Below, piece by piece: positions 40,407 through 58,412 of a stretch of 64,000 nt of DNA (the stretch's first letter is position 1; every line of letters begins with the position of its first letter). The position numbers were made by a program, and so were the translations under genes. Origin of the DNA: Rhodospirillales bacterium (GTDB taxonomy: Bacteria > Pseudomonadota > Alphaproteobacteria > Micavibrionales > Micavibrionaceae); contig CP060238.1 in NCBI GenBank assembly GCA_023898765.1, positions 428,094-492,093 on the forward strand, read 5' to 3'. Below the pieces are notes generated by a model. It saw only the letters and a list, made by a program, of their open reading frames with translations, had not been told where the DNA came from and made no database searches.

Positions 40407-42506
40407 TTAAACCCGTCTTTCATTTGTGCCTTGATGATACCCCCGGCTATGGAAGAAAGCCTGTAAGGCATCAAGCCTGGTTTTTATCTTCGCAAGCATG
40501 TTTTCCTTAAAGGACTGGTTATCTTCATAATTTTGTTCTGCTTCCGCACAAGCCTTCGCAAGCATGTTTGCTCCCAGATTCGCCGCCGCTCCTTTCATGC
40601 GATGCGCAGCCCTCTGCCAGTCTTCACTTTTATCATCCGTGCAGCTTTCTTCCAGTTCGCCGATGCTTAATTCCGTTTGTTTAAAAAACAGATCCAGCAA
40701 CTCTTTCTCCTCTTCGGGATCGCCATCGGTAAATGTTTCGAAATGCTTCATATCAACAGGCGGCTCCAGTTTTTCTTTTTCCGGCGTCGGTGAAGCATCG
40801 TTTGTCGTTTTATTTGAAATTTGTTTTTGTATGGCTTCAATGATTTTATCCGCCTTAACGGGCTTGCTGACATAATCGTCCATGCCTGCTTTCAAACATT
40901 TTTCCCTGTCCCCGATCATGGCATTTGCCGTTAAGGCTATAACAGGGAGATGCCTGTCCGTTCCCTGTTCTTTTTCCCGCAGGATTGTCGTCGCGTGATA
41001 GCCGTCAAGCACGGGCATTTGACAGTCCATCAGAACAACATCATAGGAATTGGCATCAATCATATCCAGAGCTTCCTGTCCATCATGCGCCAGATCAACA
41101 TAGGAAAAGCCGAGCTTTTTAAGCAGTTTTATAATGAAAACCTGATTTACAGGATGGTCGTCAACGGCAAGTATTCTGATATTCTTCCGTATCTCTTCGG
41201 TGTCATAGCTTTTGTCTTTGTCGAGAAGGTTCACCGGCTCCATATCTTCATCGGCTGTGCTCAGAGGCACCGTGAACCAAAATGTCGAACCCTGCCCTTC
41301 GACGCTATCAACGCCTATCTTGCCTCCCATCATATTGATAAGCTGCTGGGTAATGGCAAGCCCCAGCCCCGTTCCGCCGAATTCCCTTGTGACCGAGGTA
41401 TCGGCCTGCGTAAATTTTTCAAAAATGGCGTCTTTTTTATTTTCGGCGATTCCTATGCCTGTGTCTTTGACGGCAATGAACAGGTACGGTTCTTCTTTTT
41501 CAAAAGCGGTTTTCAGGAAAACGGTTACGCTTCCCTTTTCGGTAAATTTGATAGCGTTGCTTATCAGGTTTCTAAGGACCTGTTGTATTCTGCTGTAGTC
41601 GCCAATAACCGTTGAAGGCACTTTTTCATCGCGGTCAAGCGTTAACGCAAGCCCTTTGTCATTCGCAATAGGCAGGAATAGCTGGACAACCTGTTGCGCG
41701 GCGATTCCTATATGGAAAGGCACATTTTCGATTTCCAGCTCACCGGCTTCAATTTTGGAAATATCAAGTATATCGTTTAAAAGAGATAGAAGGTTTTGGC
41801 TTGAGCCATGCAGTATTTCAGCATTGTCTCTCTGATCCGGACTAAGATTGGAATCCAGAATAAATTCGGTCATGCCGATTATGCCGTTTAGAGGTGTGCG
41901 TAATTCATGACTCATATTGGCGAGGAATTCGCTTTTCGCAATGTTTGCAGATTCCGCTTTCTCCTTTTCTTCCCTTAACTCTTCTTCAAAAGATTTTCTT
42001 TCTGTGATGTTGCGTTCTATAGCGGCGAAATGAGTAATGTTTCCTCTTTTGTCTTTTACGGGAACAACGCTGATATCCAGCCAATAGGGGACGCCGTCTT
42101 TGGTATAGTTTTTTAATTCGCCTTGAAACGACCTGCCTTTGGAGAGGGATGTTTTTAAGGCATCGAGGACTTCCCGGCTGGTGTCTTCGCCTTGTAAAAT
42201 GCGCGGTGTTTTTCCTATGATTTCTTCGGCGTCATAGCCGGATATTTTTGAAAAAGCGCCATTAACATAGACGATTTTCGGCCCATTGTTCTCCAGATCT
42301 GCCGTCGTGATGACGATGGCATCGTTGGCGTTAATGACAGCCGCTTCCAGCAATCTGGCGTCTTCATGCAGCTGTTCGTTTAACGCATAGATTTCCCGGC
42401 TTTTTCCTTCCAATAGGGTTTCTGCCTCCTTCCGCGCTTTCTTTTCACGGGCGAGGCGTTTTTCCAGCCGGGAAATTTTCCTGTCTTTATCGATATCTTC
42501 ACTCAT
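40407..42506 (-). CDS. hybrid sensor histidine kinase (coiled coil-PAS-HisKA-HATPase-REC-HPt), HnoK-like
   Basis: H-box MSHELRTPLNGI, G2 GTGLGLAI, REC ILAVDDHP...VLMDCQMP, HPt AAHRMKGAAANLGA. ATG 42506 forms an ATGA overlap with the H-NOX stop. Confidence 0.9.
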   Translation of the reverse strand: MSEDIDKDRKISRLEKRLAREKKARKEAETLLEGKSREIYALNEQLHEDARLLEAAVINANDAIVITTADLENNGPKIVYVNGAFSKISGYDAEEIIGKTPRILQGEDTSREVLDALKTSLSKGRSFQGELKNYTKDGVPYWLDISVVPVKDKRGNITHFAAIERNITERKSFEEELREEKEKAESANIAKSEFLANMSHELRTPLNGIIGMTEFILDSNLSPDQRDNAEILHGSSQNLLSLLNDILDISKIEAGELEIENVPFHIGIAAQQVVQLFLPIANDKGLALTLDRDEKVPSTVIGDYSRIQQVLRNLISNAIKFTEKGSVTVFLKTAFEKEEPYLFIAVKDTGIGIAENKKDAIFEKFTQADTSVTREFGGTGLGLAITQQLINMMGGKIGVDSVEGQGSTFWFTVPLSTADEDMEPVNLLDKDKSYDTEEIRKNIRILAVDDHPVNQVFIIKLLKKLGFSYVDLAHDGQEALDMIDANSYDVVLMDCQMPVLDGYHATTILREKEQGTDRHLPVIALTANAMIGDREKCLKAGMDDYVSKPVKADKIIEAIQKQISNKTTNDASPTPEKEKLEPPVDMKHFETFTDGDPEEEKELLDLFFKQTELSIGELEESCTDDKSEDWQRAAHRMKGAAANLGANMLAKACAEAEQNYEDNQSFKENMLAKIKTRLDALQAFFHSRGYHQGTNERRV

Positions 42507-43045
42507 TGTTTTGTTAAGGTAAAGATCCTGCAAAACTGACCTTCGGTGTTTTTATCTTCACCTTCGATTGTGATGTTTTCCTTGTAAAAATCGGCGCAGC
42601 CCTGCATCAAGCCATGTGCAAAATCGGCAAAAGGGCACTGGGACCTGTAGGTCATTTTTAGCACGTTTCCGTTTTGCCTTTCCGTTTCAAATGAAGGGAG
42701 AACGGCATCCGGATAGAGCTTTTTTACTTCCACGTGAATATAGTCGTGCACGCCTTCCAAAAATTCAAAGGCGGATTTTTGTTCTTCGAACAGTTGGGGC
42801 ATCAGTTTATTGAAACGGAAGAAAAGATGATGCCCGTATTTATAGACCAGATCCCTGACACTCAGTCCGGAATGCTTGCTAAGGGTGCCGACGATTTCGA
42901 GCAGCTCCCGATGATCATAGGTGCCGACGGCCGTATAGGCCCCTCCGGACTCAAGATCGCAATCGTCAAAGACGTCATCCATCATGTCCTCGCCAAATGT
43001 TGCTTCCACCATATCAATAAGCTCTGTGAAAACGATTCCCTTCAT
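42503..43045 (-). CDS. hnoX: heme-NO/O2-binding (H-NOX) sensor protein
   Basis: MKGIVFTEL..., proximal-His region VHDYIHVEVKKLYPDAVLPSF, and MTYRSQCPFADFAHGL (a YxSxR-type motif with Cys in place of Arg). 180 aa. Confidence 0.88.
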   Translation of the reverse strand: MKGIVFTELIDMVEATFGEDMMDDVFDDCDLESGGAYTAVGTYDHRELLEIVGTLSKHSGLSVRDLVYKYGHHLFFRFNKLMPQLFEEQKSAFEFLEGVHDYIHVEVKKLYPDAVLPSFETERQNGNVLKMTYRSQCPFADFAHGLMQGCADFYKENITIEGEDKNTEGQFCRIFTLTKQ

Positions 43046-43089: not shown

Positions 43090-43944
43090 CTAACCTGAAT
43101 GGTTTTGTATGTAATGCAGTAATTGCTCTTTCAGGAACGGCTTGGCGATAAAGCCGCTGGCGCCTTCTTCCAGCGCTTCGGCGATATTGTCCAGATTATT
43201 ATTGCTGCTGAACATAACGACACATAGGCCCGGGTCGTTGCGCATAATCCAGCTTAATACTTCACGGCCGTTCTTATCGGGTAAATCAATATCCAGAAAA
43301 ACAATGTCGGGCTGAAAAGAGTGAATTTTGGAAAAGGACTTGTTCGCCGTCGCCGCCGTGACAAGATCACAATCATGTTTGAGGCTTTTTCTTACCATCC
43401 AGCGCGTAACGGGATCGTCCTCGACCAAAAGAACCCTTGTTTGTCCTTGTCTGTTTTTGTTGGTTTTGACAGCGAACGTTCCTATGTCCGGCGCCCCTTT
43501 TTCATCAGGAAAGGCGTAAAGATCGGCATAAGCCGAGGCGGAAACCGAAAGGCTTTCATCCTCTTGTTTAAGCGCGCGCCGAACATATAAAGGCCCCTCC
43601 TGTTCCAGATCATAAATGGCAAGCGCGCTCGATAACGAAGTCTCGTCTTCGATTATATGGCGTATCTGTTCACCGGCCTGGGCCAGAGCGCGTTTTGATA
43701 CGTTCTTGCAAAAAAGATGGATCTGGAAATTTTCACAAAAAAAGACCTCTCCTTCTATCTCTTTGAAATACGATTGTAACAGGGGCTGTATTAAAGGGAT
43801 GCAGCCTGAAAAGGATGCCTTGTCGCCTTCTTCGTCCAATTCGATATGCAGGCACCTCCAGTCCTGCCAACTCAAAGGGGTTTTGCCGATGGATGTAATA
43901 ATTTGAACCAGTCTTTTGTCTTTTTTACCGGATTGAATATCCAT
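43090..43944 (-). CDS. response regulator: unrecognised N-terminal domain + C-terminal receiver
   Basis: REC RVLLVEDDP...IVFLDIDLPD...GFIAKPF at the C-terminus. Start set at ATG 43944 (MDIQSG) with an AGGGGGAAGGA SD. Confidence 0.8.
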   Translation of the reverse strand: MDIQSGKKDKRLVQIITSIGKTPLSWQDWRCLHIELDEEGDKASFSGCIPLIQPLLQSYFKEIEGEVFFCENFQIHLFCKNVSKRALAQAGEQIRHIIEDETSLSSALAIYDLEQEGPLYVRRALKQEDESLSVSASAYADLYAFPDEKGAPDIGTFAVKTNKNRQGQTRVLLVEDDPVTRWMVRKSLKHDCDLVTAATANKSFSKIHSFQPDIVFLDIDLPDKNGREVLSWIMRNDPGLCVVMFSSNNNLDNIAEALEEGASGFIAKPFLKEQLLHYIQNHSG

Positions 43945-44848
43945 TTCCTTCCCCCTTTTGTTTTGCCTGAACGAACGGTGATTTTTCGATGTATTGGAAA
44001 AGCTTCTCCTTTGTAAAAGGTTTGACGACAAATCCTTTGGCGCCCTGCGCGACAGCCTTTAAGACATTTTCCCTGTCTCCCTTACCGCTCAGCATGACCA
44101 CATAAGCGTCAGGATCAATTTCAAAGATTTTTTTCAAAACATCGTGGCCCGTAATGTCAGGAAGTCCGATATCCAGAAAAAGAATGTCGGGCGCTTTGCC
44201 CGCGTAAGTCATAATGGCTTCACGGCCGTTTTTGGCCGTAAGCACATAATGTTCTTTGCCGAGGGCGTTCTTAATCAGCCGCTGCGAAAATAAATCGTCT
44301 TCAACAAAAAGGATTTCAGGGACGTCCCTTGCAGAGCGTCTGGACGATAATGTGGATATAAGCTTTTTTTCAATTTCTATATCCAGAAGTTTTTGCCGGT
44401 ACAGTTCCGCCTCTTTTTCGGCTTTTTGCTGTGCGCGTTTGTTTTTTTCGATTTCACTATTTTCAATTTTACGGGCGCAAATGGGCTTGAGCGCTTCCAG
44501 ATCAACCTTGATTTCATAAAGAAAAGCCAGATCCTTCGAAAACAGAGGCCGGGAGAAGGGGGCAGGCGTAAGTTTGGCGGCTAAATGGGCTAAAAACCGG
44601 CCGAGGTTTTTCTTGGTGATAAACTTTGTCAAAATAAACACGTCGTTATCGTTGCAAAGAAAAACCTCCCCCGCTTTATCGTCAAAAAAGGCATCAAGTT
44701 CTTTTATGAAGGGCTGAAACCATTTTTGTGACTCAATGCCGGATTGAGAGAACTTTAAATAAAGGCATCTTTGCGATGTGTTCTTTTTCCAATGGTTTTG
44801 AATAGAGTCAAACAAGGACCTTTCGGCATCTTCTTTAACAATTTTCAT
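43925..44848 (-). CDS. response regulator: unrecognised N-terminal domain + C-terminal receiver (paralog of 43090-43944)
   Basis: REC ILFVEDD...ILFLDIGLPD...GFVVKPF. The N-terminal ~190 aa is paralogous to the neighbouring gene. Confidence 0.8.
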   Translation of the reverse strand: MKIVKEDAERSLFDSIQNHWKKNTSQRCLYLKFSQSGIESQKWFQPFIKELDAFFDDKAGEVFLCNDNDVFILTKFITKKNLGRFLAHLAAKLTPAPFSRPLFSKDLAFLYEIKVDLEALKPICARKIENSEIEKNKRAQQKAEKEAELYRQKLLDIEIEKKLISTLSSRRSARDVPEILFVEDDLFSQRLIKNALGKEHYVLTAKNGREAIMTYAGKAPDILFLDIGLPDITGHDVLKKIFEIDPDAYVVMLSGKGDRENVLKAVAQGAKGFVVKPFTKEKLFQYIEKSPFVQAKQKGEGNGYSIR

Positions 44849-44891: not shown

Positions 44892-44907
44892 AGCAACCGG
44901 CATGCCA
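44892..44907 (-). promoter_or_regulatory. sigma-54 (-24/-12) type promoter
   Basis: Minus strand reads TGGCAT-GCCGG-TTGCT versus consensus TGGCAC-N5-TTGCW. It lies 44 nt upstream of ATG 44848. Confidence 0.6.
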
Positions 44908-45080: not shown

Positions 45081-45986
45081 ATGTCCGATTCAATCCTGAT
45101 CGTTGAAGATGATCCTATGCAGCAAAAAATGCTTGGAACGTTGCTGCGCCGGAAAATCGGGTTTGAATCACAAGTCGCCCCTAACGGGCGGGAGGCTTTG
45201 GACATTCTTGGCAGGGATGACAAAAGAGCTATAAAGCTTGTGATTCTTGATATTGACATGCCCGTTATGGGGGGGATGGAGGCTCTGGAGATTATGGCGC
45301 AGCGTTATCCGGGCCTTCCCGTCATTATGCTGACGGGGACCAGGGATATTGAAGAGGCGGTCAAGGCGATCAAGCTTGGCGCTATCGATTTCATGACCAA
45401 GCCGTATGAAGGGGAAAGGATGGCAATAACGGCTAAAAATGCTCTTAAGCTCAGCATCCTTTCTAAAGAAGTAAAACGGCTAAAAAACGAAAAGGAAGGC
45501 CACTATAGATTTGACCATTTAATAGGCCATGACGGCGGTCTGCAGGAGGCCGTTAATATGGGGCGCAAAGCCGCAGCATCTGACATACCCGTCCTTATTT
45601 CCGGAGAGACAGGCGTTGGAAAGGAAGTGTTCGCCCAAGCCATCCACGGGGAAAGTGCGCGCTTGGGAAACCCGTTTATCGCCGTCAACTGTGGCGCTAT
45701 TCCGGCACAGCTCGTTGAAAGCACCTTGTTCGGACATGAAAAAGGGGCTTTTACCGGCGCAACAGATAAGGCCACAGGCAAGTTCCGCGAAGCCGAAGGG
45801 GGCACGATTTTTCTGGATGAAGTGGGCGAGCTTCCACTGGATTCCCAGGTAAAGCTCTTGCGTATCCTTCAGCAAAAAGAGGTTGAGCCTGTCGGGGCAA
45901 GCAAAGCCGTTCCTGTAAACATACGCGTTTTATCGGCGACCAACCGCAACCTTGAAGAAGAAGTCAAGGCAGGAAACCTTTGTTAA
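45081..45986 (+). pseudogene. NtrC-family sigma-54-dependent response regulator, 3'-truncated
   Basis: REC (ILIVEDDP...ILDIDMP) + AAA+ (GETGVGKE, GAFTGA, IFLDEVGE). It ends ...EEVKAGNLC* where homologs continue FREDLYYRL. The rest of the AAA+ module and the HTH are absent. Confidence 0.8.
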
Positions 45987-46472: not shown

Positions 46473-46535
46473 ATAAACTGTGGAATTCTAAGTGTTTTCC
46501 GCTCACGATTGTATTCAACCCAGATTTTGTTCGAT

Positions 46536-49500
46536 ATGCGCTTGCCGGGAAAACAGTTTAGACATTTTACCACTGGACTTATGTTCCTTTTGCTCATCCC
46601 GCTCCACTGGGGATTTTCGGCAAGCCCGGTCAATGCAGGGGAAACTTCATCCTCTCTGGTATTTCAAAAACTTGATAATATTGATCCCGAAGCCCTTTCT
46701 CCTGAAGAAGCGAAAAGCCTGATTCGTGAACTGAAAAGTTTGGCGCAGAAAGAGGAGGCGGCTTCTTCTTCATTATATAAAAGCACCCCTTATCCCAAAA
46801 AAGAGCGTGAATACAGCGCGTGGGAGCGGCGTATCGCGCAGGAAGTCATTGCCACGGGGCAAATGCTGGAGGGCGACCCCAGATTTGATGATGTGGTGTC
46901 CACGTTGGCGCAGCGTGGTCGCTCGATATTGCCGGATGGTTCTAACGTGACGCAGGACTGGGTGCGGGAGAATTTGCAGGATGTTTTACCCGCGATTGAT
47001 AATAAAATGGCGGCAGCGGCGATGAATGCGGCAACGGGAGAGATTGCCAGAGGAACCGGCGACATGGCGAACGGTTTTGCCCAATCACAGATAGGATCGC
47101 AAATTGGCTTATCCGGGGAAGGGCAAAGCTATGATCTAGGCGGCAATCTTAAACAAACGGCCATTCGCAGCGGCCTGGAAGGGGTAAAGGCAGCAGCGTC
47201 GGCAAGCGATATTTATGCTCTGAATCACCTGGAACTGGAATACTCCCTTTCGGGTGACGGAATTGATGAATACTCGGTTTTAACCGTCCAACCGCTCTGG
47301 GACAGTGCCGATTTGCGTCATAACATTTTCGCGCAGGCTTCCTACGCCAACAAACAGGTTGAAGATATAGGTGCGGATACAAGCCAGCGCCGCGATACGG
47401 TGAATGCCGGGCTTGCTTACCGCTACATTACACCAGATGAACAGCATATGTTCGGGGCCAATGCCTTCTTCGATCACCAGTGGCCGTATCACCATAATCG
47501 CATGTCGTTGGGGCTGGATTATAAAACCAGCCTGTACGGTGTGGCGTTCAATAAATATGTCGGCCTGTCCGACTGGCGCGGACGTGATGACGGTTATGAA
47601 GAAAAAGCATTAGGAGGTGAAGATCTGGAAGTTTCGGGGCGTTTGCCCCAAGCCCCGGAACTGGAAGTGTTTGCCAAGGGCTATCATTGGAGTCAGGAAA
47701 AGACACCTGTTATCAATCCGGACGGGGACGATATATGGGGCTATCAGTTTGCGGCGGAATACACGCCGGTGAATGCCTTTACGATCCGTTCCCAAGCGAC
47801 AAGAGACAATGAAATGGACGATATGGAAGGGCAGATTACCATGCGCCTGAATTATCGTTTCGGGCAGGGATGGGATGATTTGTGGAAGCGCCCGACTTAC
47901 AATCTTGATTCCGTTCTGGATCGGCGTTTTGAGAAAGTGCGCCGGAACAATGAAATACGGGTACAGGTGCGTCAAGACCCTGATGTAACGGCGCGCGTGA
48001 CCTTTGCACAAGGGGCAAATGTCAGTGTCGGGCAATCTCTGGCCTTCGGCACGACGATTACGACCGGCGGCGCGGGCGGCGACGGAGCCACGGTAGTCTT
48101 CGGCAACGGCGCAAGGCTGGATGTGGGACAAAATACGCAAGTGCGGATTGAAAAAGACCAGATCGTCCTGATTACCGGGATTATACAATTCACCAGCGGC
48201 AGTGGCGGCATAACGGTTATTGCCGTGCCGGGCGGTACAATCGACCTGATAGGAACGGACGTGGATGTGCGCGTATCGGGCGGCACCACGACGCTGCGGG
48301 TGCGTGATGGCGCAGCGGACTTTACAGACGATACCGGTACAACGCGCGTGAATACGGAAGAACTGGCCGAAGCACAGGATGGGGATGGGCTGGCACCGCA
48401 AATCCGCGCCGAAGGTACGGCCATTTATGAGACACATACAAGTGAAGCGCACACGCAGCTTGATCTCGTCGGCCCGCAGCCTTCCAATCCGAAAGCCGCG
48501 CCTTTTGCCGATGAAGCGGTCAGTGTGGCCGGCACGCTGGCTACGGGCAATACACTGACCTTTACCGTGCCATTGACGGGAAGCGTCACGGTCACCGGAA
48601 TGCCGAGGCTACGCTTTACCCTGGGCGGTCTGGATCGTCTGGCCGATTATGCGAGCGGCAGCGGCACATCCACGCTTGTCTTTACTTATGATGTTGTGGG
48701 TGCGGATGAAACATTGTCCAATATCGTTGCCGAGGAAATCGAGAAGAACGGCGGTACGTTGACCGGCACAAACGGCGCGCCGATGGTGCGGACGGTCAGC
48801 GGCGGATTGTCCGGCACGGTGCCGGATGTCACCATGCCGACGATTGCAGGCTTTACGGCGGTATCGAGCGGCGGCGACCCGGCAGGAATTGGCGATATAA
48901 TCACGGTGACATTAAACGCGAATGAAGACCTTGTGCAAAGCGGCACGCCGAGCTTAACGCTGAATATTGGTGGCACGTCCCGCACCGCGAATTTCTCCGC
49001 GATCAATGCCGGTAACGCCGAATTTACCTACACGGTGCAGGCGGGGGACAATGACGCGGACGGGATCACGATTACCGCGATCACTGTGGCGGCGGATGAG
49101 CTGGAGGATGCGTCCGGCAACGATCTGGATACGACATTTGCTCTGCCACATAATTTAAGCCTTGATGTAAGCACGATCCTTCTAGGTCTTTCATCTTGCC
49201 CGTCCGGTGATTTGTCCGCCCCGGCCAATTCAGGCTGTGCGCGCCTGTTTGGGGCGGATCCCACGGATATGGATGATGTGATGGTTTATGCCGGGGATGT
49301 ACCGGGCACAACCACGGACTTCTTCGTGCGCCGCTGTGATCTGGGGCAGGACTATGACCCGGTTGACGACCGCTGTGAAAATGGCGGCGGCGATCCGAAT
49401 ACCAGAGATACGATGCAATGGAAAAATGCCAATACGGAATCCGACACAACGAATATAGGAACGGGTACGGCTTGGACAAATGTAAATGCCACGGATGGCC

Positions 49501-49862
49501 CTGGCAATACGGCAACGCTTGTGGCCGATGTATCAGGTACGCACACGGCGGCGGAAACCTGTAATGCTCTGTCCGGCGGTGGCTGGTATCTGCCGGCGAT
49601 TTCGGAACTGGATGTGATCTATGCCAATTTGAATGCGACAGACGATCCCGACCATCCATTGCCGACAGTCAATGATGCGACAGATGATGATAACAGCGGC
49701 ACGACCGGTCCGTTGCGTAGCAGCTTTGATCTCAGCGGCCAATGGTACTGGTCGTCCTCGGAGCCCAATAGCGGCGGCGCATGGATACAGCGCTTCAGTG
49801 ACGGTGGCCAGAGCAGCAGCAATAAGACGCCTTTCCGTAGCGTCCGCTGTGCCCGGAGATGA
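46536..49862 (+). CDS. inverse autotransporter (intimin/invasin-family) adhesin with FecR-like, Ig-like and C-terminal DUF1566 (Lcl C-terminal, lectin-like) domains
   Basis: Signal peptide ...SPVNA-GE. The beta-domain matches the invasin pattern (GLAYRY...FGANAFFDH...RMSLGLDY...NKYVGLSDW...EEKALGGEDLEVSGRLP...AAEYTPV...RLNYRFGQGW). The C-terminus reads GGWYLPAISEL...WYWSSSE...AW...RSVRCAR. Confidence 0.85.
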   Translation: MRLPGKQFRHFTTGLMFLLLIPLHWGFSASPVNAGETSSSLVFQKLDNIDPEALSPEEAKSLIRELKSLAQKEEAASSSLYKSTPYPKKEREYSAWERRIAQEVIATGQMLEGDPRFDDVVSTLAQRGRSILPDGSNVTQDWVRENLQDVLPAIDNKMAAAAMNAATGEIARGTGDMANGFAQSQIGSQIGLSGEGQSYDLGGNLKQTAIRSGLEGVKAAASASDIYALNHLELEYSLSGDGIDEYSVLTVQPLWDSADLRHNIFAQASYANKQVEDIGADTSQRRDTVNAGLAYRYITPDEQHMFGANAFFDHQWPYHHNRMSLGLDYKTSLYGVAFNKYVGLSDWRGRDDGYEEKALGGEDLEVSGRLPQAPELEVFAKGYHWSQEKTPVINPDGDDIWGYQFAAEYTPVNAFTIRSQATRDNEMDDMEGQITMRLNYRFGQGWDDLWKRPTYNLDSVLDRRFEKVRRNNEIRVQVRQDPDVTARVTFAQGANVSVGQSLAFGTTITTGGAGGDGATVVFGNGARLDVGQNTQVRIEKDQIVLITGIIQFTSGSGGITVIAVPGGTIDLIGTDVDVRVSGGTTTLRVRDGAADFTDDTGTTRVNTEELAEAQDGDGLAPQIRAEGTAIYETHTSEAHTQLDLVGPQPSNPKAAPFADEAVSVAGTLATGNTLTFTVPLTGSVTVTGMPRLRFTLGGLDRLADYASGSGTSTLVFTYDVVGADETLSNIVAEEIEKNGGTLTGTNGAPMVRTVSGGLSGTVPDVTMPTIAGFTAVSSGGDPAGIGDIITVTLNANEDLVQSGTPSLTLNIGGTSRTANFSAINAGNAEFTYTVQAGDNDADGITITAITVAADELEDASGNDLDTTFALPHNLSLDVSTILLGLSSCPSGDLSAPANSGCARLFGADPTDMDDVMVYAGDVPGTTTDFFVRRCDLGQDYDPVDDRCENGGGDPNTRDTMQWKNANTESDTTNIGTGTAWTNVNATDGPGNTATLVADVSGTHTAAETCNALSGGGWYLPAISELDVIYANLNATDDPDHPLPTVNDATDDDNSGTTGPLRSSFDLSGQWYWSSSEPNSGGAWIQRFSDGGQSSSNKTPFRSVRCARR

Positions 49863-49999
49863 ACCATTTAATCATTTAATAATTTAACTGTCCCCGCGAA
49901 GCGGGGTCGCTACAAATTTTTTGCAGAATTTTTTAAAAACATCTTTTCTTACAGTTGGTTAATACGCACAATAGAGGTCTGTATGAAGGGTGTTTTTTA

Positions 50000-50347
50000 A
50001 TGGCGCAATACCAGCATTTGCCAATTTACAAGTTGACCTATGATCTGCTTTTGCGGATTATGCAGGTGACGAAGAATTTTCCGCGCGAATATAGGCACAC
50101 ACTTGGGCAGAAGCTGAAAGAAGAAATTATTGAGCTGGTCGTTATGATCTATAAGGCCAACACAGCCAAGGACAAGGAGCATCACATTGAAATGATCCTT
50201 GAGCGCATTCAGGTGGTGCAGTTATTGATAAGATTGTCGCATGATATAAGAATATTGCCGCGTAAGCATTACGTAGACCTTGCCGAGAAAATCGACAGCC
50301 TGGCTCGTCAGGCGCAAGGGTGGCTCAAGAGTTCGGGAAAGAGATAG
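50000..50347 (+). CDS. four-helix-bundle protein (23S rRNA intervening-sequence protein / Avd-like family)
   Basis: MAQYQHLPIYKLTYDLLLRIMQVTKNFPREYRHTLGQKL... is typical of this family. 115 aa from ATG 50000. Confidence 0.8.
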   Translation: MAQYQHLPIYKLTYDLLLRIMQVTKNFPREYRHTLGQKLKEEIIELVVMIYKANTAKDKEHHIEMILERIQVVQLLIRLSHDIRILPRKHYVDLAEKIDSLARQAQGWLKSSGKR

Positions 50348-50426
50348 CCAGAACGGGTTGCGGCCAAGGCCCGGCCCGGCGAGCGTGTTCATCTCGGATG
50401 ATGGCGGTAACGGTTTCAAAAGGAAA

Positions 50427-50451
50427 CCACGCGGCGTTTATAGCCGCGTGG
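50427..50451 (-). terminator. hairpin terminator downstream of the ParB-like gene
   Basis: CCACGCGGC-N7-GCCGCGTGG. On the minus strand it is followed by TTTCCTTTT. Confidence 0.5.
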
Positions 50452-50467
50452 CAAGTGGGGCAGGGGA

Positions 50468-52222
50468 CTAGGCCGCTTCCGCGTATTCTTCCTCGTCCTC
50501 AAAGTCGGCGGATTCTTCAAAATTCTCTTCCTCCGGCTCATCTTTGGCATCGGGATTGATAGCGGGAAACTGCATGGCTTCGGGAATCCAGAACGTAGCT
50601 TTTAATTCATCTTGGTTCGGAGCTTCCAGTGTCAAAACGTGCTGGAAGTGCTTTGCCATTGAGGACACAAGTTCTTTCTTCTTGTACCCCGCCGCACTAC
50701 CGTACTTTTGGGAGCAACCGGCCTCGCTGATAATTTTCAAAAGCTGTTCCTTGTTGCGGCGTTTCAGGAACGCTTCGTCAGGCCGCCAGTAATCCCGCAT
50801 ATCGACATTCAAATCCGCCGCTATCTTGTTAAACAGGCTGTCTGCATTGGTATCAAGACGATCAACAAAGCTCTGACCAAACTCTAAAACTTCCAAGGCC
50901 ACCAGAATTTCTTCCAGTTGTTCATCGGACAAGGACTGTACGGCCATATATGCCCCTTCCATATTGTAAGAAAACAAATAGCCCAAACTATGCCAACTTT
51001 GGCGGTCTTCGTCCTGTTCAATGGCTTCCTTATCGACACCGAACAATCCCAGAAGATCAGTGCATTTATCATTGATAACCTTGAGGGCAGGGGGGGTATA
51101 TCCTTCCTGCATAAAATAAATCAAGGCATCGTGATTTTTAAAGCGATACAACTTTTGGGTCACAGCCAGTTCCTTTGCTTTTCTCGGATTTCCGAGCAAA
51201 GCGGCCTGTACTGCCACGCTCTTGTGCATGGACATATTACGCACAAGCGGGGTGGAGTAGGTGGGTTTCGGCTTTTTCAGGGCATCCGTGGTCGATTTAT
51301 CGGCCTTGGTTTTGGTAAGTCCTTCATGGACTTCTACTTCACCATCTGAATGAATAGCCACGATAACGCCGCCTTTCTCACCTTCTGGGGCTTCGCCGTA
51401 TTCCCATGAATGGAAATGCCCTTCAAGCAATTCAGCCCATTCAGCGGTGTTTGAGTGTTCTTCTACGAGTTTTTCTGCCGCCGCTTTTTGCAACTCGAAA
51501 AATTGCTCAAAATCGTTGAAATAGGTGGCATCATCCTCGGCGAGAAGGTCTTGCGTGAAATCGCCTGTGTATTCGGCTTTATCAAAAATTGCCATAGACA
51601 CACTCGGCAAATTGCCAAGAATCATGTCTTTTACATCTTCCGCGTCATTGTAACTGGAAGTCGCGCGGCCTAAGACCCTTTCCTGCTGTTCATGGCTTCC
51701 GATGCTCAAGGCTTCGGCTTTTGAAAGCGTGAGTTCACCTTCGATTAAAGCCTGTTTCGCCGCTTCACAAAGGTCTGTCAGAGCAAGGCGGCGTTTGATA
51801 GTCGCCACGGCAAGACCCGTTTTTGCGACAATATCATCCAGTCTTTCGCCATCCTGAACCAAGAGCTTGATAGCTTCGGCTTCTTCCATTGGAGAGAGGT
51901 CTTCCCGTTGCATATTTTCCATTGTGGCAATACGCTGTGTTTCTTCATCCGATAAGTCGGCTTTGATTTCAACCGTCACCTCGTAATCTTCGGGCAAATC
52001 GCCTTGCTCCTGCAATAGAGACAAAGCCCGAAAACGGCGTTCACCGCAAATAATCGGGTGCATTTTCTTTCTGCCTTTGGGTTTGCCGACAATCAGGTTT
52101 TGAAGCAATCCGTCCGTTTTAATGGACAGTGCCAATCCTGCGATAGTGGCATCATCAAAGTTTTTACGCGGGTTTCCAGTTGAAGGCTGGATTTTTGAAA
52201 GTGGTAATGTTTGCAAAGTCAT
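50468..52222 (-). CDS. ParB/Srx N-terminal domain protein of the plasmid/ICE-borne type, 584 aa
   Basis: LPLSKIQPSTGNPRKNF...LLQNLIV...ICGERRFRAL ParB-like nuclease fold motifs, a long C-terminal extension and an acidic tail. ATG 52222 with a GGAGAA SD. Confidence 0.8.
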   Translation of the reverse strand: MTLQTLPLSKIQPSTGNPRKNFDDATIAGLALSIKTDGLLQNLIVGKPKGRKKMHPIICGERRFRALSLLQEQGDLPEDYEVTVEIKADLSDEETQRIATMENMQREDLSPMEEAEAIKLLVQDGERLDDIVAKTGLAVATIKRRLALTDLCEAAKQALIEGELTLSKAEALSIGSHEQQERVLGRATSSYNDAEDVKDMILGNLPSVSMAIFDKAEYTGDFTQDLLAEDDATYFNDFEQFFELQKAAAEKLVEEHSNTAEWAELLEGHFHSWEYGEAPEGEKGGVIVAIHSDGEVEVHEGLTKTKADKSTTDALKKPKPTYSTPLVRNMSMHKSVAVQAALLGNPRKAKELAVTQKLYRFKNHDALIYFMQEGYTPPALKVINDKCTDLLGLFGVDKEAIEQDEDRQSWHSLGYLFSYNMEGAYMAVQSLSDEQLEEILVALEVLEFGQSFVDRLDTNADSLFNKIAADLNVDMRDYWRPDEAFLKRRNKEQLLKIISEAGCSQKYGSAAGYKKKELVSSMAKHFQHVLTLEAPNQDELKATFWIPEAMQFPAINPDAKDEPEEENFEESADFEDEEEYAEAA

Positions 52223-52443
52223 GGTATTTCTCCTTTTTGCTTTGGTTAGGTTAAAAAGTGCGTGTCGCACTTCTTTCCTATGGGCCGCGCAGCGGCTTCT
52301 AAGCGCCAGGATCCGTCAAGCTTGAAACCCTTCGTAGAAGGGGCAGGCGAAATTTTATTGTCTTTCCTAGCTTGCGACGGAAAGCAGTAAAATTTTCGGC
52401 TTTCGGGCTTTACGGAGACAGGCAAGAGAAAAAACAAAAAAGC

Positions 52444-52495
52444 CCTTAAACCCCAAAAATTGGAATCATCCCTTCCTTAAACCCCAAAAATTGGA
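52444..52495 (+). promoter_or_regulatory. two perfect 21-bp direct repeats (CCTTAAACCCCAAAAATTGGA), 31-bp period, upstream of fic
   Basis: Copies at 52444-52464 and 52475-52495. The second ends 25 nt before ATG 52521. Confidence 0.6.
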
Positions 52496-52520
52496 TAAAG
52501 TGGCCTTGAAAGGATTTTTA

Positions 52521-54023
52521 ATGCCCACTTTTTTTGACGATCTGCCGGAAATCTTTGTCTCCAATACCGAAATTTCAGGATTGGTGAGAAAAGCCGTGAA
52601 ATCTGGAAAGCTCCGAAAACTCGGCACAAGACTTTACACAAAAGATCTGGAAGCAACGCCAGAAAGCATCGTGAAGCGTAACTGGTATTTTTTGCTTAAA
52701 CGTTATTACCCCGATGCCCTGATTGCCGACCGCACCGCGATTGAAAACCAGCCTGCGGCAGACGGCTCGGTGTTTATCGTTTCAAAGAAAAAGAGAGAAA
52801 CCGTCCTGCCAGGGATTATTTTTAAACCAAGGCCGGGAGTAGGGGGCTTGGAAACAGACCGGCCTTTCCTGGGCGGGGTACATCTGTCCTCAACCGGGCG
52901 CGCCTATCTTGAAAATATGAGGCCGTCCCGCGCGCGCGGCGGCGATACCTCCCGCACCTTATCCCGAAAAGAAATTGAAGAACGTCTTGACCGCGTATTG
53001 CGGCAAAGCGGTCATGCCGGACTGAATGCCATTCGGGATGAAGCCCGCGTATTGGTAAAAAAGCTTGATGCGGAAAAAGAATTTAAGGAACTGGACGAGC
53101 TGATCGGATCGCTGCTTGGAACGCGCGACACAGAAATGAAAAGTGATATAGGCAAGGCCAGGAAAGGGGGGATGCCCTTTGATCCTGTGAGATTGGAAAA
53201 ATTCATCACATTGTTTGAAGCCTTAAAAGCATCTGCCCCCGTACACCGCCGCGCGCGAGAAACCACCGGGGCGGCCAGAACCAATTTGGCGTTTTTTGAG
53301 GCTTATTTCTCTAACTTCATTGAAGGGACGGAATTTGAAATTGATGAGGCCGTTGATATTGTCTTTAATGGCCGCATCCCGAATGACCGGCCTGAAGACG
53401 CGCACGATGTTTTAGGGACATTCAGAATTGTTTCCGATACTTCGGAAATGGCCAAATTGCCAACTTCAGCGGAAGAATTGTCCCATTTGCTGAAAAGCCG
53501 TCACGCGGTTTTTATGGAGCTGCGGCCGGATAAACACCCCGGCGCGTACAAGATCAAAAACAACCAGGCCGGCTCAAGTCTTTTTGTCGCCCCTGAACTG
53601 GTGGAAGGCACACTAGAAAAAGGATTTGAAATATACCAATCATTGAGCGTCCCTTTGTACCGAGCCATTTTTATGATGTTCCTGATTAGTGAAATTCACC
53701 CGTTCACGGACGGTAACGGGCGAGCAGCACGAATTATGATGAATGCGGAGCTGATGGCGGCTGGTGAAGAAAAAATCATTATTCCCACGATCTATAGAAG
53801 CAATTACCTCTCTTCGCTCAAGGCACTAACCCATAACGGACTAACAGAGCCACTAATCCGAACACTCGACTTTGCTCAAAAATATACAAGAAGCCTCGAT
53901 TGGGATGATTTTGAAGAAGCGCGGCGCCAGCTCGCGGGAACAAATGCCTTTATGGATCCGAATGAAGCTGACGAAAACGGCGTGAGGCTGAAACTTTATC
54001 AGGAAAGCGAGCGCAGCAGCTAA
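52521..54023 (+). CDS. Fic family protein (probable AMPylase) with long N-terminal extension
   Basis: Fic motif HPFTDGNGRAAR. Upstream inhibitory-helix-type motif SNFIEG. ATG 52521 with an AAGGA SD (the TTG at 52491 lies inside a repeat). Confidence 0.9.
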   Translation: MPTFFDDLPEIFVSNTEISGLVRKAVKSGKLRKLGTRLYTKDLEATPESIVKRNWYFLLKRYYPDALIADRTAIENQPAADGSVFIVSKKKRETVLPGIIFKPRPGVGGLETDRPFLGGVHLSSTGRAYLENMRPSRARGGDTSRTLSRKEIEERLDRVLRQSGHAGLNAIRDEARVLVKKLDAEKEFKELDELIGSLLGTRDTEMKSDIGKARKGGMPFDPVRLEKFITLFEALKASAPVHRRARETTGAARTNLAFFEAYFSNFIEGTEFEIDEAVDIVFNGRIPNDRPEDAHDVLGTFRIVSDTSEMAKLPTSAEELSHLLKSRHAVFMELRPDKHPGAYKIKNNQAGSSLFVAPELVEGTLEKGFEIYQSLSVPLYRAIFMMFLISEIHPFTDGNGRAARIMMNAELMAAGEEKIIIPTIYRSNYLSSLKALTHNGLTEPLIRTLDFAQKYTRSLDWDDFEEARRQLAGTNAFMDPNEADENGVRLKLYQESERSS

Positions 54024-54113
54024 TTTTTGGGGCGCTCTGGTGCTGTTGAACGTACCAGAGGGCAATTTTTTTTCGTGAGAACGACGAGAGAGCATGTTTT
54101 TTCACCTGAAAAT

Positions 54114-54578
54114 TCAATATTTGTTGCTTTTTCGCCATTCTCGCGGCGTTTGAAACGTCCCGCCCCATATACCTCTTTTGCCGATTTGAGCCTGATCCTG
54201 GGCGGCAGCGTAAAATCCATGACTGAAATATCTGTAGTCAATAGCCCACCCGCCGCGCACCATGAGATCGGCAAGATCGTCGCCAGCAACGAAGCATTGC
54301 GCCACAGTACGGGTTTCGCTTTTGGCGCGAGGCTTCTCCTGACATTGCAGCTCGTCCGGGTCAATCAAGCTGACCAAGTATTCGCGTGCCTGCCGGCCAC
54401 ACGGATATTCCCGGCCGTCTTGCCAGCAGAATTGATGCAGCTCCACGGCGTCAATCCCCCAGAGCCGGATTTCCCGCGTGCCTAAAACAAAACTGTCGCC
54501 GTCTTTGACGTAGAGTTTTGTACCCGCCGCGGCCGGATATAAAAATCCTGAAAGCAGCAAACAACCTAAGAAAATCAC
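54114..54578 (-). CDS. thermonuclease (SNase-like) family protein
   Basis: ...VKDGDSFVLG.REIRLWGIDAVE...GRQAREYL...YRYF pattern. GTG start. The N-terminal signal peptide is possibly clipped by the upstream junction. Confidence 0.75.
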   Translation of the reverse strand: MIFLGCLLLSGFLYPAAAGTKLYVKDGDSFVLGTREIRLWGIDAVELHQFCWQDGREYPCGRQAREYLVSLIDPDELQCQEKPRAKSETRTVAQCFVAGDDLADLMVRGGWAIDYRYFSHGFYAAAQDQAQIGKRGIWGGTFQTPREWRKSNKY

Positions 54579-54600
54579 AATCGGCAGGAATCGTGTTAAT

Positions 54601-54918
54601 CTATTGTTCTCTAAGGCTAAGGTATTTGACTAGATTGGCTTCTGTTACGGCCTGATCCTGTGTCAAATTGCCGGCAATAAGACCCTTCGTGACTTCGGTG
54701 TAACCTGTTTGCCGATCGACTGTAATAACGTATGGCTCAAAAGTTTTTAGCGGCAGTAGGAAAAGAAGACAGAGTATGCAGAGTACAGAAACAACCATAC
54801 TTGCAGACGCAACAATCCATGCTCGGTTTCTTGACTGTACGGCATTAGCGACAATCTCATTTTCCCAAGTTTGTCCTTTTTTATAATAGTCTTCTTTTTG
54901 CTTAGGATTCATAAGCAT
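54601..54918 (-). pseudogene. virB8: VirB8-family T4SS gene, 3'-truncated (105 codons)
   Basis: N-terminal cytoplasmic part + TM + ...PLKTFEPYVITVDRQTGY...ANLVKYLSLREQ*. Full-length VirB8 is about 230 aa. Confidence 0.7.
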
Positions 54919-54920
54919 CT

Positions 54921-55928
54921 TTAAAACCCTCTAATCTTTTTAATAGTTTGCCCCAAACGATTTTTTGCCGCCGCCGCCGTTAATTTGGGGTGTCGGGCAG
55001 CATTATACCCAATGACACTGGCTTTCCCTGTAGCCGCAGGAGCGCGACGTGCTATTGCTGTACCAGCTCGGCTAAACCATGAGCCAGCTCCCAATGTTGA
55101 GAGTGATAACCCGCCGGTGATGGAAGCGGCCATATTCATTACTTGCGCGAGCAATAAAACTGCGACAACCGATGTAAACAAGAACGGCCCGATAGCGGTA
55201 ATAAGAGGATCATCAGGATTCGAGTTATTCTCCATGAATTGAAGCGGCATTTCTGCAAGTGTCAGCATTAACGCGAGCAGGGCATATACAAAAATTGGGA
55301 TGACAGCATAATTGAGCAGGGTTCGCAGCCAGCCTTCAAAGAGGTTTTTTGTATTGTTGAATATGAGCAGCAAAATAAACAGCGGGCCTACAGCAAGAAG
55401 AATGGCTACGGCTAATTTTGCCAAAACAATGAGCATAGCTGCAAAGGCAGTAAATGAGATAGCTCCAACCCAGATAGCCCCGGCATAGAAATAAAGCCCC
55501 CATTTTGTCCAGCCAGCACCCTCTAAAAGCTTTTCTGAAACTTCCATAGAGCGATCATAAAATTGCGACAACGCAAGATTTGCGGTGGTTTCATCATTGG
55601 CAACGGGGGCGGCTAATGTGTCTGCAGCGCCCTGCATAATCTGACCTGCTACATCGGAGGGAAGGTCAGTAGCCATGTCATAGACCAAGATCATAAAAGT
55701 ATTCCACTCGGTCGCTACGACCAGAAGAATAATGATTTTAAGGACATTGACGAGAAGATCTGGAGCTGAGAAACGCCCGCTGACAATCACTTTATACCCA
55801 AATACTGCGATAAAAATGATAAACATTAACCGCCATAGTATTTGCACAACAGGCGTAAGGCTTCCAAAGGCCCCATTGACCAAAGCAAACACTAGATTGT
55901 CAACATTTGTAATAAGCGTTTCTATCAT
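54921..55928 (-). CDS. virB6: VirB6/TrbL-family T4SS inner-membrane protein
   Basis: 335 aa polytopic membrane protein with the VirB6-like layout, sitting between VirB4 and VirB8 remnants. Confidence 0.75.
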   Translation of the reverse strand: MIETLITNVDNLVFALVNGAFGSLTPVVQILWRLMFIIFIAVFGYKVIVSGRFSAPDLLVNVLKIIILLVVATEWNTFMILVYDMATDLPSDVAGQIMQGAADTLAAPVANDETTANLALSQFYDRSMEVSEKLLEGAGWTKWGLYFYAGAIWVGAISFTAFAAMLIVLAKLAVAILLAVGPLFILLLIFNNTKNLFEGWLRTLLNYAVIPIFVYALLALMLTLAEMPLQFMENNSNPDDPLITAIGPFLFTSVVAVLLLAQVMNMAASITGGLSLSTLGAGSWFSRAGTAIARRAPAATGKASVIGYNAARHPKLTAAAAKNRLGQTIKKIRGF

Positions 55929-55931
55929 TTT

Positions 55932-56387
55932 TTACGGGTTTTCCGGCATAATGGCTTCAAGAGCTTTTTTTCTAGCTTCGGCCTCTTGTTCTTTTCTGGA
56001 TTTAGTTGTTTTTTGAGGAAGGCGCATAGCATCTCTGGCTTTATCCGCATCGTATTGGTTGGCTTTTGAAGCCTGAACACGATCATTGAAGGCCATCCAA
56101 ATAGTAGGCAGTTTCACATGATCGGGTTTGACGTTGCCAAAGCCGGCCTCAGTCATAATTGTTGCAAGGCTTTCCGCTGTGTTCTCACAGTTTTCTAAGG
56201 CGGTTTCAGTCGCGCTGCTTTGGTCGACCCAAAGCTGTCCGCATTGTTCAATAGCGGGTGTTTTTTTCTGGTATATCCATTCCGCTAATTCTTTAGAATC
56301 GCGCTTTTCAAGTGGGTTTTTACCGTCGTTACATGCTGTAAGGCCAAGCCCCGCTACCATTACGAAGAGAAGAGTCGTTTTTCTCAT
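55932..56387 (-). CDS. lipoprotein, 151 aa (possibly an entry-exclusion-type lipoprotein)
   Basis: Lipobox GLGLTAC. Its position immediately upstream of virB6 matches that of eex in IncN-type operons. The functional call is speculative. Confidence 0.45.
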   Translation of the reverse strand: MRKTTLLFVMVAGLGLTACNDGKNPLEKRDSKELAEWIYQKKTPAIEQCGQLWVDQSSATETALENCENTAESLATIMTEAGFGNVKPDHVKLPTIWMAFNDRVQASKANQYDADKARDAMRLPQKTTKSRKEQEAEARKKALEAIMPENP

Positions 56388-56572
56388 GCTTTTGCTTTCC
56401 CGTTATTAAAAAGTTCCGCCATATTGATAGGTATATGGTTACAAGGGTTTTCCGACATTGAAGCACTTGGAGGGCAGGGGGCTTTTTTCTCGTTGTACTT
56501 CAGCGACGAGCAACCGCCTAACGCCAAGGCTGGAAGTGCTAAAAGTGAAATTAAAAATAGTCGTTTCATCAT
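56384..56572 (-). CDS. small lipoprotein, 62 aa (T4SS-associated, VirB7-like?)
   Basis: Lipobox ALGGC, Pro/Cys-containing mature part, ATGA-type overlap with the next gene. Confidence 0.45.
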   Translation of the reverse strand: MMKRLFLISLLALPALALGGCSSLKYNEKKAPCPPSASMSENPCNHIPINMAELFNNGKAKA

Positions 56573-56660
56573 CTACTCCATTTAGTTTTGAGGTAATTCC
56601 ATAGCTTCTCTATGGCAGTAAAGCCAAGGATGGTGAGTAAGGCTATAGAGCAAAGTTTTT

Positions 56661-58412
56661 TCATGCGGCGGCTCTCCCGTTTGTAAAGTGAGGCAACCAG
56701 CTTTCCGGGCTTGTGCCGTGATCTTCCATAAGTTTTTCAAGGACGCGAACGCTTTCAGTACGACCAGACAAAACAGCAATAAATTCATCAAGGCCGGTGA
56801 GATCGAGTTTCGCAATGACGGAATCTGTACCGTGTCTAACCAGGAAGCATCGAGATTCCGGTGTTAAATTCCGAATAATTTTGAGTTCATGTTTAGAAAG
56901 GCCAAAGCCTTCGCAGTAATCTTTTTCTGACGCTCTGGCGTTGGGAAGGAATATTTGGGTAGGGGATTGCTCAATAATGGCATCACCAACCGAGCTTCCT
57001 ATAGCGTCTTTGGCAGATTGGGTTGCGAAACCCAATATTCCATTTTGTTTACGAATGGTTTTCATCCAGTCCTTAATTCGGGCTGAAAATGCCGGATCAT
57101 CCAACATTTTCCATCCTTCATCGAGCATGAGAATTGTTTTGTTGCCATCCAGAAGCTCATTGACCCGGTGGAATATATACATCATCCAAGGAGTGCGGCT
57201 TACTGGATCATCAAGGATGGAGGTAAGGTCAAAACCAATAGTCCGGTTGTTCAAAGAAAGCGTGTCAGTTTCATTATCAAAAAGCCATGCTCTTTCGCCC
57301 ATACTGTGCCATTTGGCAATTCTCGATGCTAAGGTGTAGTCACCTGCAGAGCCATACCCTGAAAGTAGTTCAGAAAGATGAGCAAGGCGGCGATTTTCCG
57401 GCTTGGTTTCATAGTTTGCGTTTACTGCATCAGCAATAATTTCGATTTCTTGTGGTGTGAGGGGCTTGTTATTCTCGGACGTAACAAGCACTTTTATCCA
57501 TTCTCGCAAGAAGCTTCTATTTTCAGGCGTATCCGGTAGTTGGAGTGGATTTAACCCTGTGGGTCTGCCGGCATGAACAATCGTATAATCCCCGCCGATC
57601 GCGCGAATAAAAATTTCCGCGCCACGGTCTTTATCAAAGTAAACAGCTTTTGGATTTAGACGCTGCGCTTGCGCCAATAGGAAAGTGAGTAGAACAGTCT
57701 TCCCCGTTCCTGTCGGGCCGATCACGGTAAAATTGCCAACATCACGTTCATGGAAATTAAACCAATATGGAGTGCCGGACGTTGTTTCTAGCCTCGTAAT
57801 GGAATCTCCCCAATGATTACCGGTTTTACTTCCGGCCGGGAAGTTATGGAAGCTGGCAAATCCAGCAAAATTATTATTGGATATAAGGGAACGGCGGGCA
57901 ATGTAACTTAAATTCCCCGGTAAATTCGCCCAGTATGCCGGTTCTAAATTTATATCTTCGCGGACACTGACGATGCCGAGATTAACCAATTCTGATACGC
58001 AGGCGCTTATGGCCTGGTCAAGATCTCTTGGAGCTTTTGCTATGCTCGTAATGGTCAAATGATGTTCGCCGAATGAACAACGCCCCGAAGCTAGGCTGTC
58101 TCTTGCTTCATCAATATCTTCAATGAGGCTGTTGGCGCCTTGTTCGCTGGCGATCATTTTACGCATGGCTTCATTCATGGCCGATAACGAAGTTTGCCTG
58201 TCAACGAACCCAAAACTTTGCGTCAGTATAAATTCGTGCGGGAGGCGCAGCAGGCCATCAAGCATACCGGGGCCGGTTGCGTTGGCGTATTCTTTGATGG
58301 ACAAGACAGCAGCAAGCTTTACGTCACCTGGAGCTGCGCCCCGTACTTCCAGAGTTTCCTTACCAAAGGAAATTCGTTTTGCGGGCAGGTATAAATGCAG
58401 CCGGACATAGTG
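56661..58412 (-). pseudogene. virB4: VirB4-family T4SS ATPase, 5'-truncated
   Basis: Walker A GPTGTGKT and full C-terminal ATPase domain. The frame is open only back to 58412 (no ATG; the ORF-track start is TTG 58304). About 220-250 N-terminal residues are missing. It abuts the hipA stop at 58427. Confidence 0.85.

Follow-up and report, generated by a model that had tools for sequence, protein, structure and literature searches.

What output is served by two adjacent response regulators (RRs) whose N-terminal domains match no described family? The question is raised by a 64,000-nucleotide stretch of a Rhodospirillales bacterium genome (GenBank assembly GCA_023898765.1, contig CP060238.1, positions 428,094 to 492,093; hereafter the window). 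In it, four tightly packed minus-strand genes running from 44848 to 40407 encode two RRs (RR-A and RR-B), an H-NOX haem sensor and a hybrid histidine kinase. The start of RR-B overlaps the end of RR-A, with 20 nt shared, and the ATG of the kinase gene overlaps the stop codon of the co-oriented hnoX gene. An initial annotation had taken the two RRs for the probable terminal acceptors of an H-NOX relay. Our analysis points instead to a new family of RR effector domains, the N-domain, that goes with the hybrid kinase and is found beside H-NOX in a minority of loci.

Both proteins end in the canonical receiver (REC) that had been read from their motifs. Pfam detected Response_reg (PF00072) in RR-A (E = 5.9e-23, 81.6 bits) and in RR-B (E = 2e-22, 79.9 bits) against a cut-off of 30.2 bits. 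This was the sole domain detected in either protein, the N-terminal parts having no Pfam or NCBIfam match. RR-A carries the acidic pair D184/D185, the phospho-acceptor D226, S254 and K276, and RR-B the corresponding D176/D177, D218, S246 and K268. Among 66 RR-A-like (A-type) sequences, D184, D185 and D226 were present in 100 %, S254 in 98 % and K276 in 97 %; across these and 43 RR-B-like (B-type) sequences, the receiver catalytic residues were kept at 88-100 %, and for the acidic pair, the phospho-acceptor Asp, the Ser and the Lys the range was 93-100 %. The modelled RR-A receiver has the (beta-alpha)5 fold and matched CheY of T. maritima (4qyw) in Foldseek with E = 2.8e-11, a template modelling (TM) score of 0.90 and a root-mean-square deviation of 1.3. 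RR-A and RR-B are predicted to be bona fide phospho-accepting response regulators.

The N-terminal regions of the two proteins are related to each other, as the initial annotation had proposed. BLASTP aligned them with 27 % identity over 60 aa (E = 3e-6), and hhalign aligned the A-type and B-type subfamily profiles over 129 columns with a probability of 99.6 % (E = 1.7e-24); on this sequence evidence we regard them as true paralogues. The annotated length of 170-190 aa proved too long: the folded domain comprises about 112 aa and is followed by a long helix (residues 113-155) in RR-A or a variable linker in RR-B. AlphaFold2, run with the family alignments, modelled the N-domain alone with a predicted local distance difference test (pLDDT) score of 92.1 and a predicted TM score of 0.88, and full-length RR-A with a pLDDT of 88.9. 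The elements follow the order b1(2-4), a1(8-21), b2(27-31), a2(40-55), b3(61-64), b4(70-74), a3(79-92), b5(108-112) and the long helix, and these models allow us to propose with confidence a ferredoxin-like beta-alpha-beta-beta-alpha-beta core after an N-terminal beta-alpha unit. A metal or redox site formed by C28 and C65 was considered and is unlikely, the cysteines being placed by the model at opposite ends of non-adjacent strands.

The region also stayed unrecognised when searched against known families and structures. PDB sequence searches with two-sequence and 85-sequence profiles gave nothing significant (best match uricase, E = 0.083), and at E <= 1 no Pfam family had matches to two or more of 85 N-domains. 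Foldseek returned nothing for the N-domain model at E <= 1e-3 in PDB or BFVD, the BFVD search being empty, and only receiver matches for full-length RR-A.

Word-indexed homologue searches with either N-domain or with the 85-sequence profile returned self-matches alone. When 1.84 billion representative proteins were scanned exhaustively with a profile, 91 matched at E <= 1e-3, 20 of them at E <= 1e-10, and one of the 91 was a spurious repeat protein. Nearly all members are 270-310 aa long with the N-domain match at residues 1 to about 120; those checked all carry a C-terminal REC, no other architecture occurred among the profile-scan matches, and the public names are 'response regulator' or 'CheY-like chemotaxis protein' only. 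Scanning one genome per GTDB species gave 80 loci, and the 77 with an N-domain form the locus sample used below (individual loci, including sampled contigs, carry L numbers). All of these N-domain loci lie in metagenome-assembled genomes (MAGs) assigned to Micavibrio, to Pseudobdellovibrionaceae (the NCBI home of Micavibrio), or to unclassified Alphaproteobacteria, Rickettsiales or Rhodospirillales. In the genome collection the family is confined to Micavibrio-like Alphaproteobacteria, and the nearest genome orthologue of RR-A is only 49 % identical. A metagenome scan with the B-type alignment relied on generic receiver patterns; it yielded mostly unrelated receivers and only about five family loci. 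Our literature search found no account of the N-domain family or of a comparable globin-kinase cassette. As judged from sequence, the N-domain joined to REC constitutes a new, well-delimited family of RR effector domains, rare and restricted to one lineage.

Two subfamilies make up this family, with about 37 A-type and 55 B-type representatives. The A-type is marked by a CxDxD[VI]F beta-hairpin in which D67 and D69 are kept in 94 % and 95 % of 66 sequences, by K127 (94 %) in the helix after the hairpin region, by R171 (98 %) and R174 (91 %) just N-terminal of the receiver, and by a conserved SPFxQxK tail behind it; D67, D69 and E112 are invariant in a 21-sequence A-type alignment. The B-type has an invariant W29 (43 sequences) and the receiver hallmarks VEDDPxTRW and VVMFSS. 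It lacks the RRxxR motif and does not preserve the DxD: in RR-A the hairpin sequence is CNDNDVF, in RR-B it is CENFQIH, with Q at the D69 position. A more distant third group, again N-domain plus REC, was recovered by hidden Markov model (HMM) searches at E values of 1e-4 to 1e-7 (L073, L074, L078, L080-L082, L085); no kinase gene adjoins it in these loci.

To place the family in its genetic context, the open reading frames of the loci were searched with home-built HMMs and phmmer, with Pfam run on samples and extra contigs sampled. A recurring cassette emerged, consisting of a divergent NtrC-type REC-AAA+-HTH (helix-turn-helix) activator, an A-type RR, a B-type RR, an optional small sensor and a hybrid kinase with REC and Hpt; the kinase of the window has both of these domains by Pfam, as annotated. 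The A-then-B tandem occurs in 41 of the 77 loci. An A-type RR alone accounts for 35, and in 13 of these the next gene encodes a receiver-only protein with B-type hallmarks that scores higher against B-type than against A-type receivers. By sequence these are B-type proteins without their N-domain, and the B-type N-domain is thus evolutionarily dispensable. The hybrid kinase lies directly downstream of the RR genes in 51 of the 63 loci with enough flank, so the RR pair is very likely a phospho-acceptor of this kinase. The same order was seen around three independently sampled B-type representatives: each follows an A-sized RR and precedes a hybrid kinase or, for one of them, a protein consisting of Hpt only.

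The cassette also has a transcriptional side. Of 65 loci, 34 have a divergent sigma-54 activator next to the module. A -24/-12 motif, TGGCAC-N5-TTGCW, was found upstream of the first gene of the operon. It recurs before the A-type gene of 21 out of 74 related loci (0.013 expected per 420 nt), nearly all of the closest relatives included. The motif has three matches in the window against 0.39 expected; the other two, which fit the pattern TGGCAY-N5-YTGCW, lie at 1869-1884 (plus strand) and 23230-23245 (minus strand). The promoter and the divergent activator together suggest an autoregulated, sigma-54-dependent cassette. With the activator in 34/65 loci and a sigma-54 promoter before RR-A, a conventional transcriptional output is normally part of the module, and the description of RR-A and RR-B as 'terminal acceptors' becomes doubtful.

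The link to H-NOX is looser than to the kinase. H-NOX is encoded in 10 of the 77 N-domain loci; its orthologues take the same position there as in the window, and do so in L001 and L004 as well. Fifteen of the 77 encode a truncated globin (PF01152, about 122 aa), placed between RR-B and the kinase (L028, L050, L053, L063, L076; E = 1e-17 to 1e-20), behind the divergent activator gene (L044, L047, L051, L052, L054, L062, L066, L069, L077) or beside the kinase (L064). L003 and L169 instead encode a PhnD-like periplasmic binding protein in the sensor slot, together with a HAMP-containing kinase, and in many loci the slot is empty. Since H-NOX is in the minority and the sensors are exchangeable, the RR pair belongs to the kinase and not to H-NOX. 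The annotation of the pair as outputs of the H-NOX relay therefore stands as far as the shared operon with the kinase goes (51/63) and fails on H-NOX itself, phylogenetic profiling of the N-domain against hnoX being largely negative for H-NOX specificity (10/77). Whether the domain might be common and unlinked to H-NOX, as the annotation had also considered, has a split answer: it is rare and lineage-restricted, and it is mostly unlinked. The sequences suggest that a truncated globin can serve the same kinase cassette as an alternative haem gas sensor.

The H-NOX of the window has its putative proximal His at H104. The haem-propionate motif of H-NOX proteins is usually YxSxR; here residues 133-137 (window 42635-42649) read Y133-R-S135-Q-C137, and Cys replaces the final Arg in the window protein and in all 11 aligned full-length orthologues.

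We favour a model in which RR-A as main effector and RR-B as modulator are phospho-controlled, non-enzymatic effectors of the kinase relay, and we put its probability at about one half. In this model the PAS hybrid kinase would autophosphorylate and the phosphoryl group would pass through its own REC and then its Hpt, which would phosphorylate RR-A, RR-B and, where intact, the divergent NtrC-type activator. The activator with sigma-54 would drive the cassette's own promoter, and the small sensor whose gene lies between those of the RRs and the kinase, H-NOX in the window, would only tune kinase activity. The N-domain would act as a non-enzymatic effector, through protein interaction or dimerisation, with phosphorylation of the receiver switching its availability. 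The principal effector would be RR-A, which is always present and combines the coiled-coil linker with the conserved DxD hairpin and the RxxR motif. For RR-B we propose a role as a phosphate sink that competes for phosphoryl groups, as a partner of RR-A, or as both. The role of modulator is assigned to RR-B because its N-domain has been lost repeatedly and lacks a conserved polar site in common with the A-type. The reading as non-enzymatic is favoured because no catalytic family was matched, the DxD is not kept in the B-type and the N-domain was seen fused to REC only. The sequences show the architecture, the family with its paralogy, the conserved synteny, the intact phospho-acceptor residues and the promoter motif; how the phosphoryl group travels, how RR-A and RR-B share their tasks and that their output is non-enzymatic are inferred.

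Several points weigh against this model. Operon membership is no proof of phosphotransfer from the hybrid kinase, and no kinase is encoded beside about 12 distant members, one of which belongs to a Micavibrio aeruginosavorus MAG. The A-type residues D67, D69 and K127 are conserved at 94-95 %, as those of an active or ligand site would be. Lastly, GGDEF domains lead the weak Foldseek list, which keeps a nucleotide-related function in view.

The last two points would be explained if RR-A and RR-B were an enzyme and pseudo-enzyme pair, the A-type N-domain being a minimal palm- or GGDEF-derived metal-dependent catalyst (CxDxD[VI]F, K127, E112) and RR-B its degenerate allosteric regulator. By topology, the position of D67/D69 on the hairpin would be the metal-binding position in palm and GGDEF domains. 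Regulation by a degenerate protein is known from the H-NOX network of Shewanella, where HnoD, with its degenerate HD-GYP, acts on the EAL protein HnoB. The invariance of D67, D69 and E112 in the 21 aligned sequences and the Q of RR-B at the D69 position agree with such a pair. In the model the DxD of the beta3-beta4 hairpin appears to occupy the GG[DE]EF position, as judged by topology and without superposition, and about half of the top 50 PDB matches in Foldseek were GGDEF or GGDEF-like, with probabilities up to 0.92; the weak neighbours include DosC (E = 0.013), a T. maritima diguanylate cyclase, GcbC (TM 0.51), PelD and GTP cyclohydrolase III. These are weak likenesses to the palm-like domains of GGDEF proteins and class III cyclases, PelD included, with which the N-domain as modelled may share a ferredoxin-like core and, in the A-type, a conserved acidic beta-hairpin. 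However, no Foldseek E value was below 0.013, with TM scores of 0.35-0.51, and hhalign of the N-domain alignment (A3) against a GGDEF alignment (A5) gave a probability of 0.35 % (E = 0.17). Pfam found no GGDEF domain in the 85 members at E <= 1, and the N-domains contain no GG[DE]EF motif, no beta1 DxD metal site and no conserved RxxD I-site; the strand equivalent to GGDEF beta1 (RCLYLKFS) has no acidic residues. In length, too, the N-domain falls short of GGDEF by about 50 aa, the C-terminal third of GGDEF having no counterpart in it. Since the sequence-level tests of GGDEF ancestry fail, we rejected membership as a degenerate GGDEF domain, while the weak palm-like resemblance stays, and we consider the enzyme pair unlikely. 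In a bolder version, the A-type N-domain would be a minimal palm-like module for catalysis or nucleotide binding, related to GGDEF and cyclase domains, the B-type would be a pseudo-enzyme regulator, and haem-sensed gas signals would reach a new small-molecule or enzymatic output; this seems to us rather improbable. If it were true, Micavibrio-like predators would turn nitric oxide (NO) or O2 signals, via H-NOX or truncated globin, into a new output.

A second alternative takes the NtrC-type activator for the real output and leaves RR-A and RR-B as phosphate sinks or Hpt-competitors, with the N-domain serving oligomerisation or localisation. Sink RRs are well established in chemotaxis-like systems. 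The frequency of the adjacent activator (34/65), the sigma-54 promoter on the RR operon and the ability of B-type proteins to drop the N-domain all fit this feedback role. The A-type N-domain, however, is kept in all 77 loci with its conserved polar residues, and an adjacent activator is missing from about half of the loci. In the window it is the activator that is truncated and both RRs that are intact, yet RR-A is frameshifted in two sister assemblies. We think it quite unlikely that feedback is all the pair does. Least likely of all is that the N-domain, possibly with the A-type RRxxR, binds cyclic-di-GMP or another nucleotide to integrate a second messenger with phosphorylation, as the degenerate GGDEF receptor PelD and the arginine-rich CheY-like Cle proteins do. 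In its favour are R171 (98 %) and R174 (91 %) immediately before the receiver, the weak structural likeness to degenerate GGDEF receptors, PelD among them, and the gene for a GGDEF-EAL protein that stands two genes away from distant orphan members in genomes like that of Micavibrio aeruginosavorus. Against it, there is no conserved RxxD I-site upstream of the hairpin (alignment A4), the B-type has no RRxxR, a regular-expression search found no canonical GGDEF motif in the window and 86 family loci (about 1.2 Mb), and the GGDEF-EAL neighbourhood may be plain synteny of close relatives.

How does the favoured model of non-enzymatic, phospho-controlled effectors compare with known systems? One likeness in layout is to the PatA-type proteins (PATAN-REC; PatA of Anabaena, and PixG of Synechocystis with the CheY-like PixH), in which, as in RR-A and RR-B, an N-terminal non-DNA-binding domain of 110-180 aa precedes the receiver. 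They too have the gene of a second RR as neighbour, and the pair may act antagonistically; two antagonistic RRs are described for Tax1 (PMC11181946). In contrast to the PatA type, the list of families matched by the 85 N-domains at E <= 1 does not include PF14332 (DUF4388/PATAN), the partner here is a PAS hybrid HisKA kinase with Hpt and not CheA, and the lineage is that of Micavibrio-like Alphaproteobacteria. The H-NOX/HnoK networks of Shewanella and Vibrio, and H-NOX/HqsK-LuxU-LuxO, similarly have hnoX beside the kinase gene, a kinase that feeds several RRs, one RR that is an NtrC/LuxO-type sigma-54 activator and, it may be, an active/degenerate pair of paralogues. The RRs of the HnoK network are HnoB (REC-EAL), HnoC (HTH) and HnoD (REC with a degenerate HD-GYP). 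The effector domains described here are instead N-terminal and of a new family, without EAL, HD-GYP or HTH, and H-NOX is swapped for a truncated globin or binding protein in other loci. CheV (CheW-REC) and PhyR (sigma-like-REC) resemble the family in that a C-terminal receiver controls an N-terminal protein-interaction domain. The annotation had set both apart from RR-A and RR-B, along with GGDEF, EAL, HD-GYP and HTH proteins, and this was borne out by sequence: there was no CheW (PF01584) match in RR-A, RR-B or the 85 N-domains and no Sigma70_r2, Sigma70_r4 or PhyR_sigma2 match in RR-A or RR-B, and the topology of the N-domain differs from those of CheV and PhyR.

Two kinds of neighbourhood fall outside the cassette described above. 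In L085 (CP066681.1, the Micavibrio aeruginosavorus MAG) a distant member is clustered with a GGDEF-EAL protein, which was detected by Pfam and has a non-canonical motif, an amidohydrolase and cysS. Similar-sized genes stand at the matching positions in L073, L074 and L081. The GGDEF-EAL neighbour could reflect a functional link or plain synteny. In four loci with an A-type RR alone (L026, L037, L057, L071), genes for a HlyB-type ATP-binding cassette (ABC) exporter, a HlyD-type membrane-fusion protein and a REC-HATPase_c_2 protein (RsbW-like) precede the RR, Pfam having been run on L026 alone. This arrangement hints at a link to type I secretion or partner switching.

The features of the window are listed in Table 1. 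Two independent Logan assemblies, L001 and L002 (SRR23924734, SRR17907851), carry the operon in near-identical form, L001 being 99.98 % identical to the window over 5.7 kb. Its only difference over that length is one A missing from an A7 run in RR-A (window ~44370), and L001 and L002 (1156-2078) encode the same split RR-A of 190 aa and 106 aa. Either a sequencing error in the homopolymer or true on/off variation could explain the missing A. The activator gene is cut short in the window: compared by tblastn with the intact L007 orthologue, its product has only about the first 300 of about 459 residues and breaks off within the AAA+ domain, and the C-terminal remainder was found nowhere in the window. 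Intact orthologues carry HTH_8; L001 and L002 carry the same 301-aa product as the window. Beyond the truncated gene, 46509-62376 is a mosaic of mobile-element-type genes, and the activator gene may have been disrupted by insertion. A search for variable-repeat/template-repeat (VR/TR) pairs beside the bAvd-like gene of this mosaic found none.

Table 1 Features of the window around RR-A and RR-B (positions in the window; residue numbers refer to the protein of that row).
Feature	Position	Strand	Product or layout	Basis or remark
RR-A	44848..43925	minus	307 aa, A-type; N-domain 1-112, long helix 113-155, RRxxR 170-174, receiver 179-287, tail SPFxQxK	ATG open reading frame; Shine-Dalgarno GGAAGGGAG
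RR-B	43944..43090	minus	284 aa, B-type; N-domain roughly 1-115, variable linker, receiver 171-279 with VEDDPVTRW and VVMFSS	ATG after strong Shine-Dalgarno GGGGGAAGG
H-NOX haem sensor	43045..42503	minus	180 aa	PF07700, E 6.8e-41, full length
Hybrid histidine kinase	42506..40407	minus	699 aa; PAS-HisKA-HATPase-REC-Hpt	Pfam; gene call in L001
Sigma-54 type promoter	44907..44892	minus	TGGCATgccggTTGCT = TGGCATGCCGGTTGCT	Near-consensus; 43 nt upstream of RR-A start codon
NtrC-type activator, truncated	45081..45986	plus	REC and most of the sigma-54 AAA+ domain, no HTH	Pfam
Inverse autotransporter	46509-49862		With Lcl_C domain	
bAvd-like protein	49955-50347		Type found in diversity-generating retroelements	
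Further mosaic genes	Within 46509-62376		ParB-like, Fic, TrbL/VirB6, VirB4 fragment, HipA, lambda-type phage portal	

When bacterial signalling is read from genomes, the main gap is left by response regulators with unassigned effector domains. The family described here is directly testable, having a fold model, two subfamilies, conserved residues and fixed genetic partners, and we offer D67, D69, K127, R171 and R174 of the A-type and W29 of the B-type as residues for mutation. To our knowledge, the signalling of Micavibrio-like epibiotic predators is essentially unstudied. In these organisms the truncated globin that stands in the H-NOX slot may be a kinase-regulating gas sensor, which, if confirmed, would be a new role for this class of globin.

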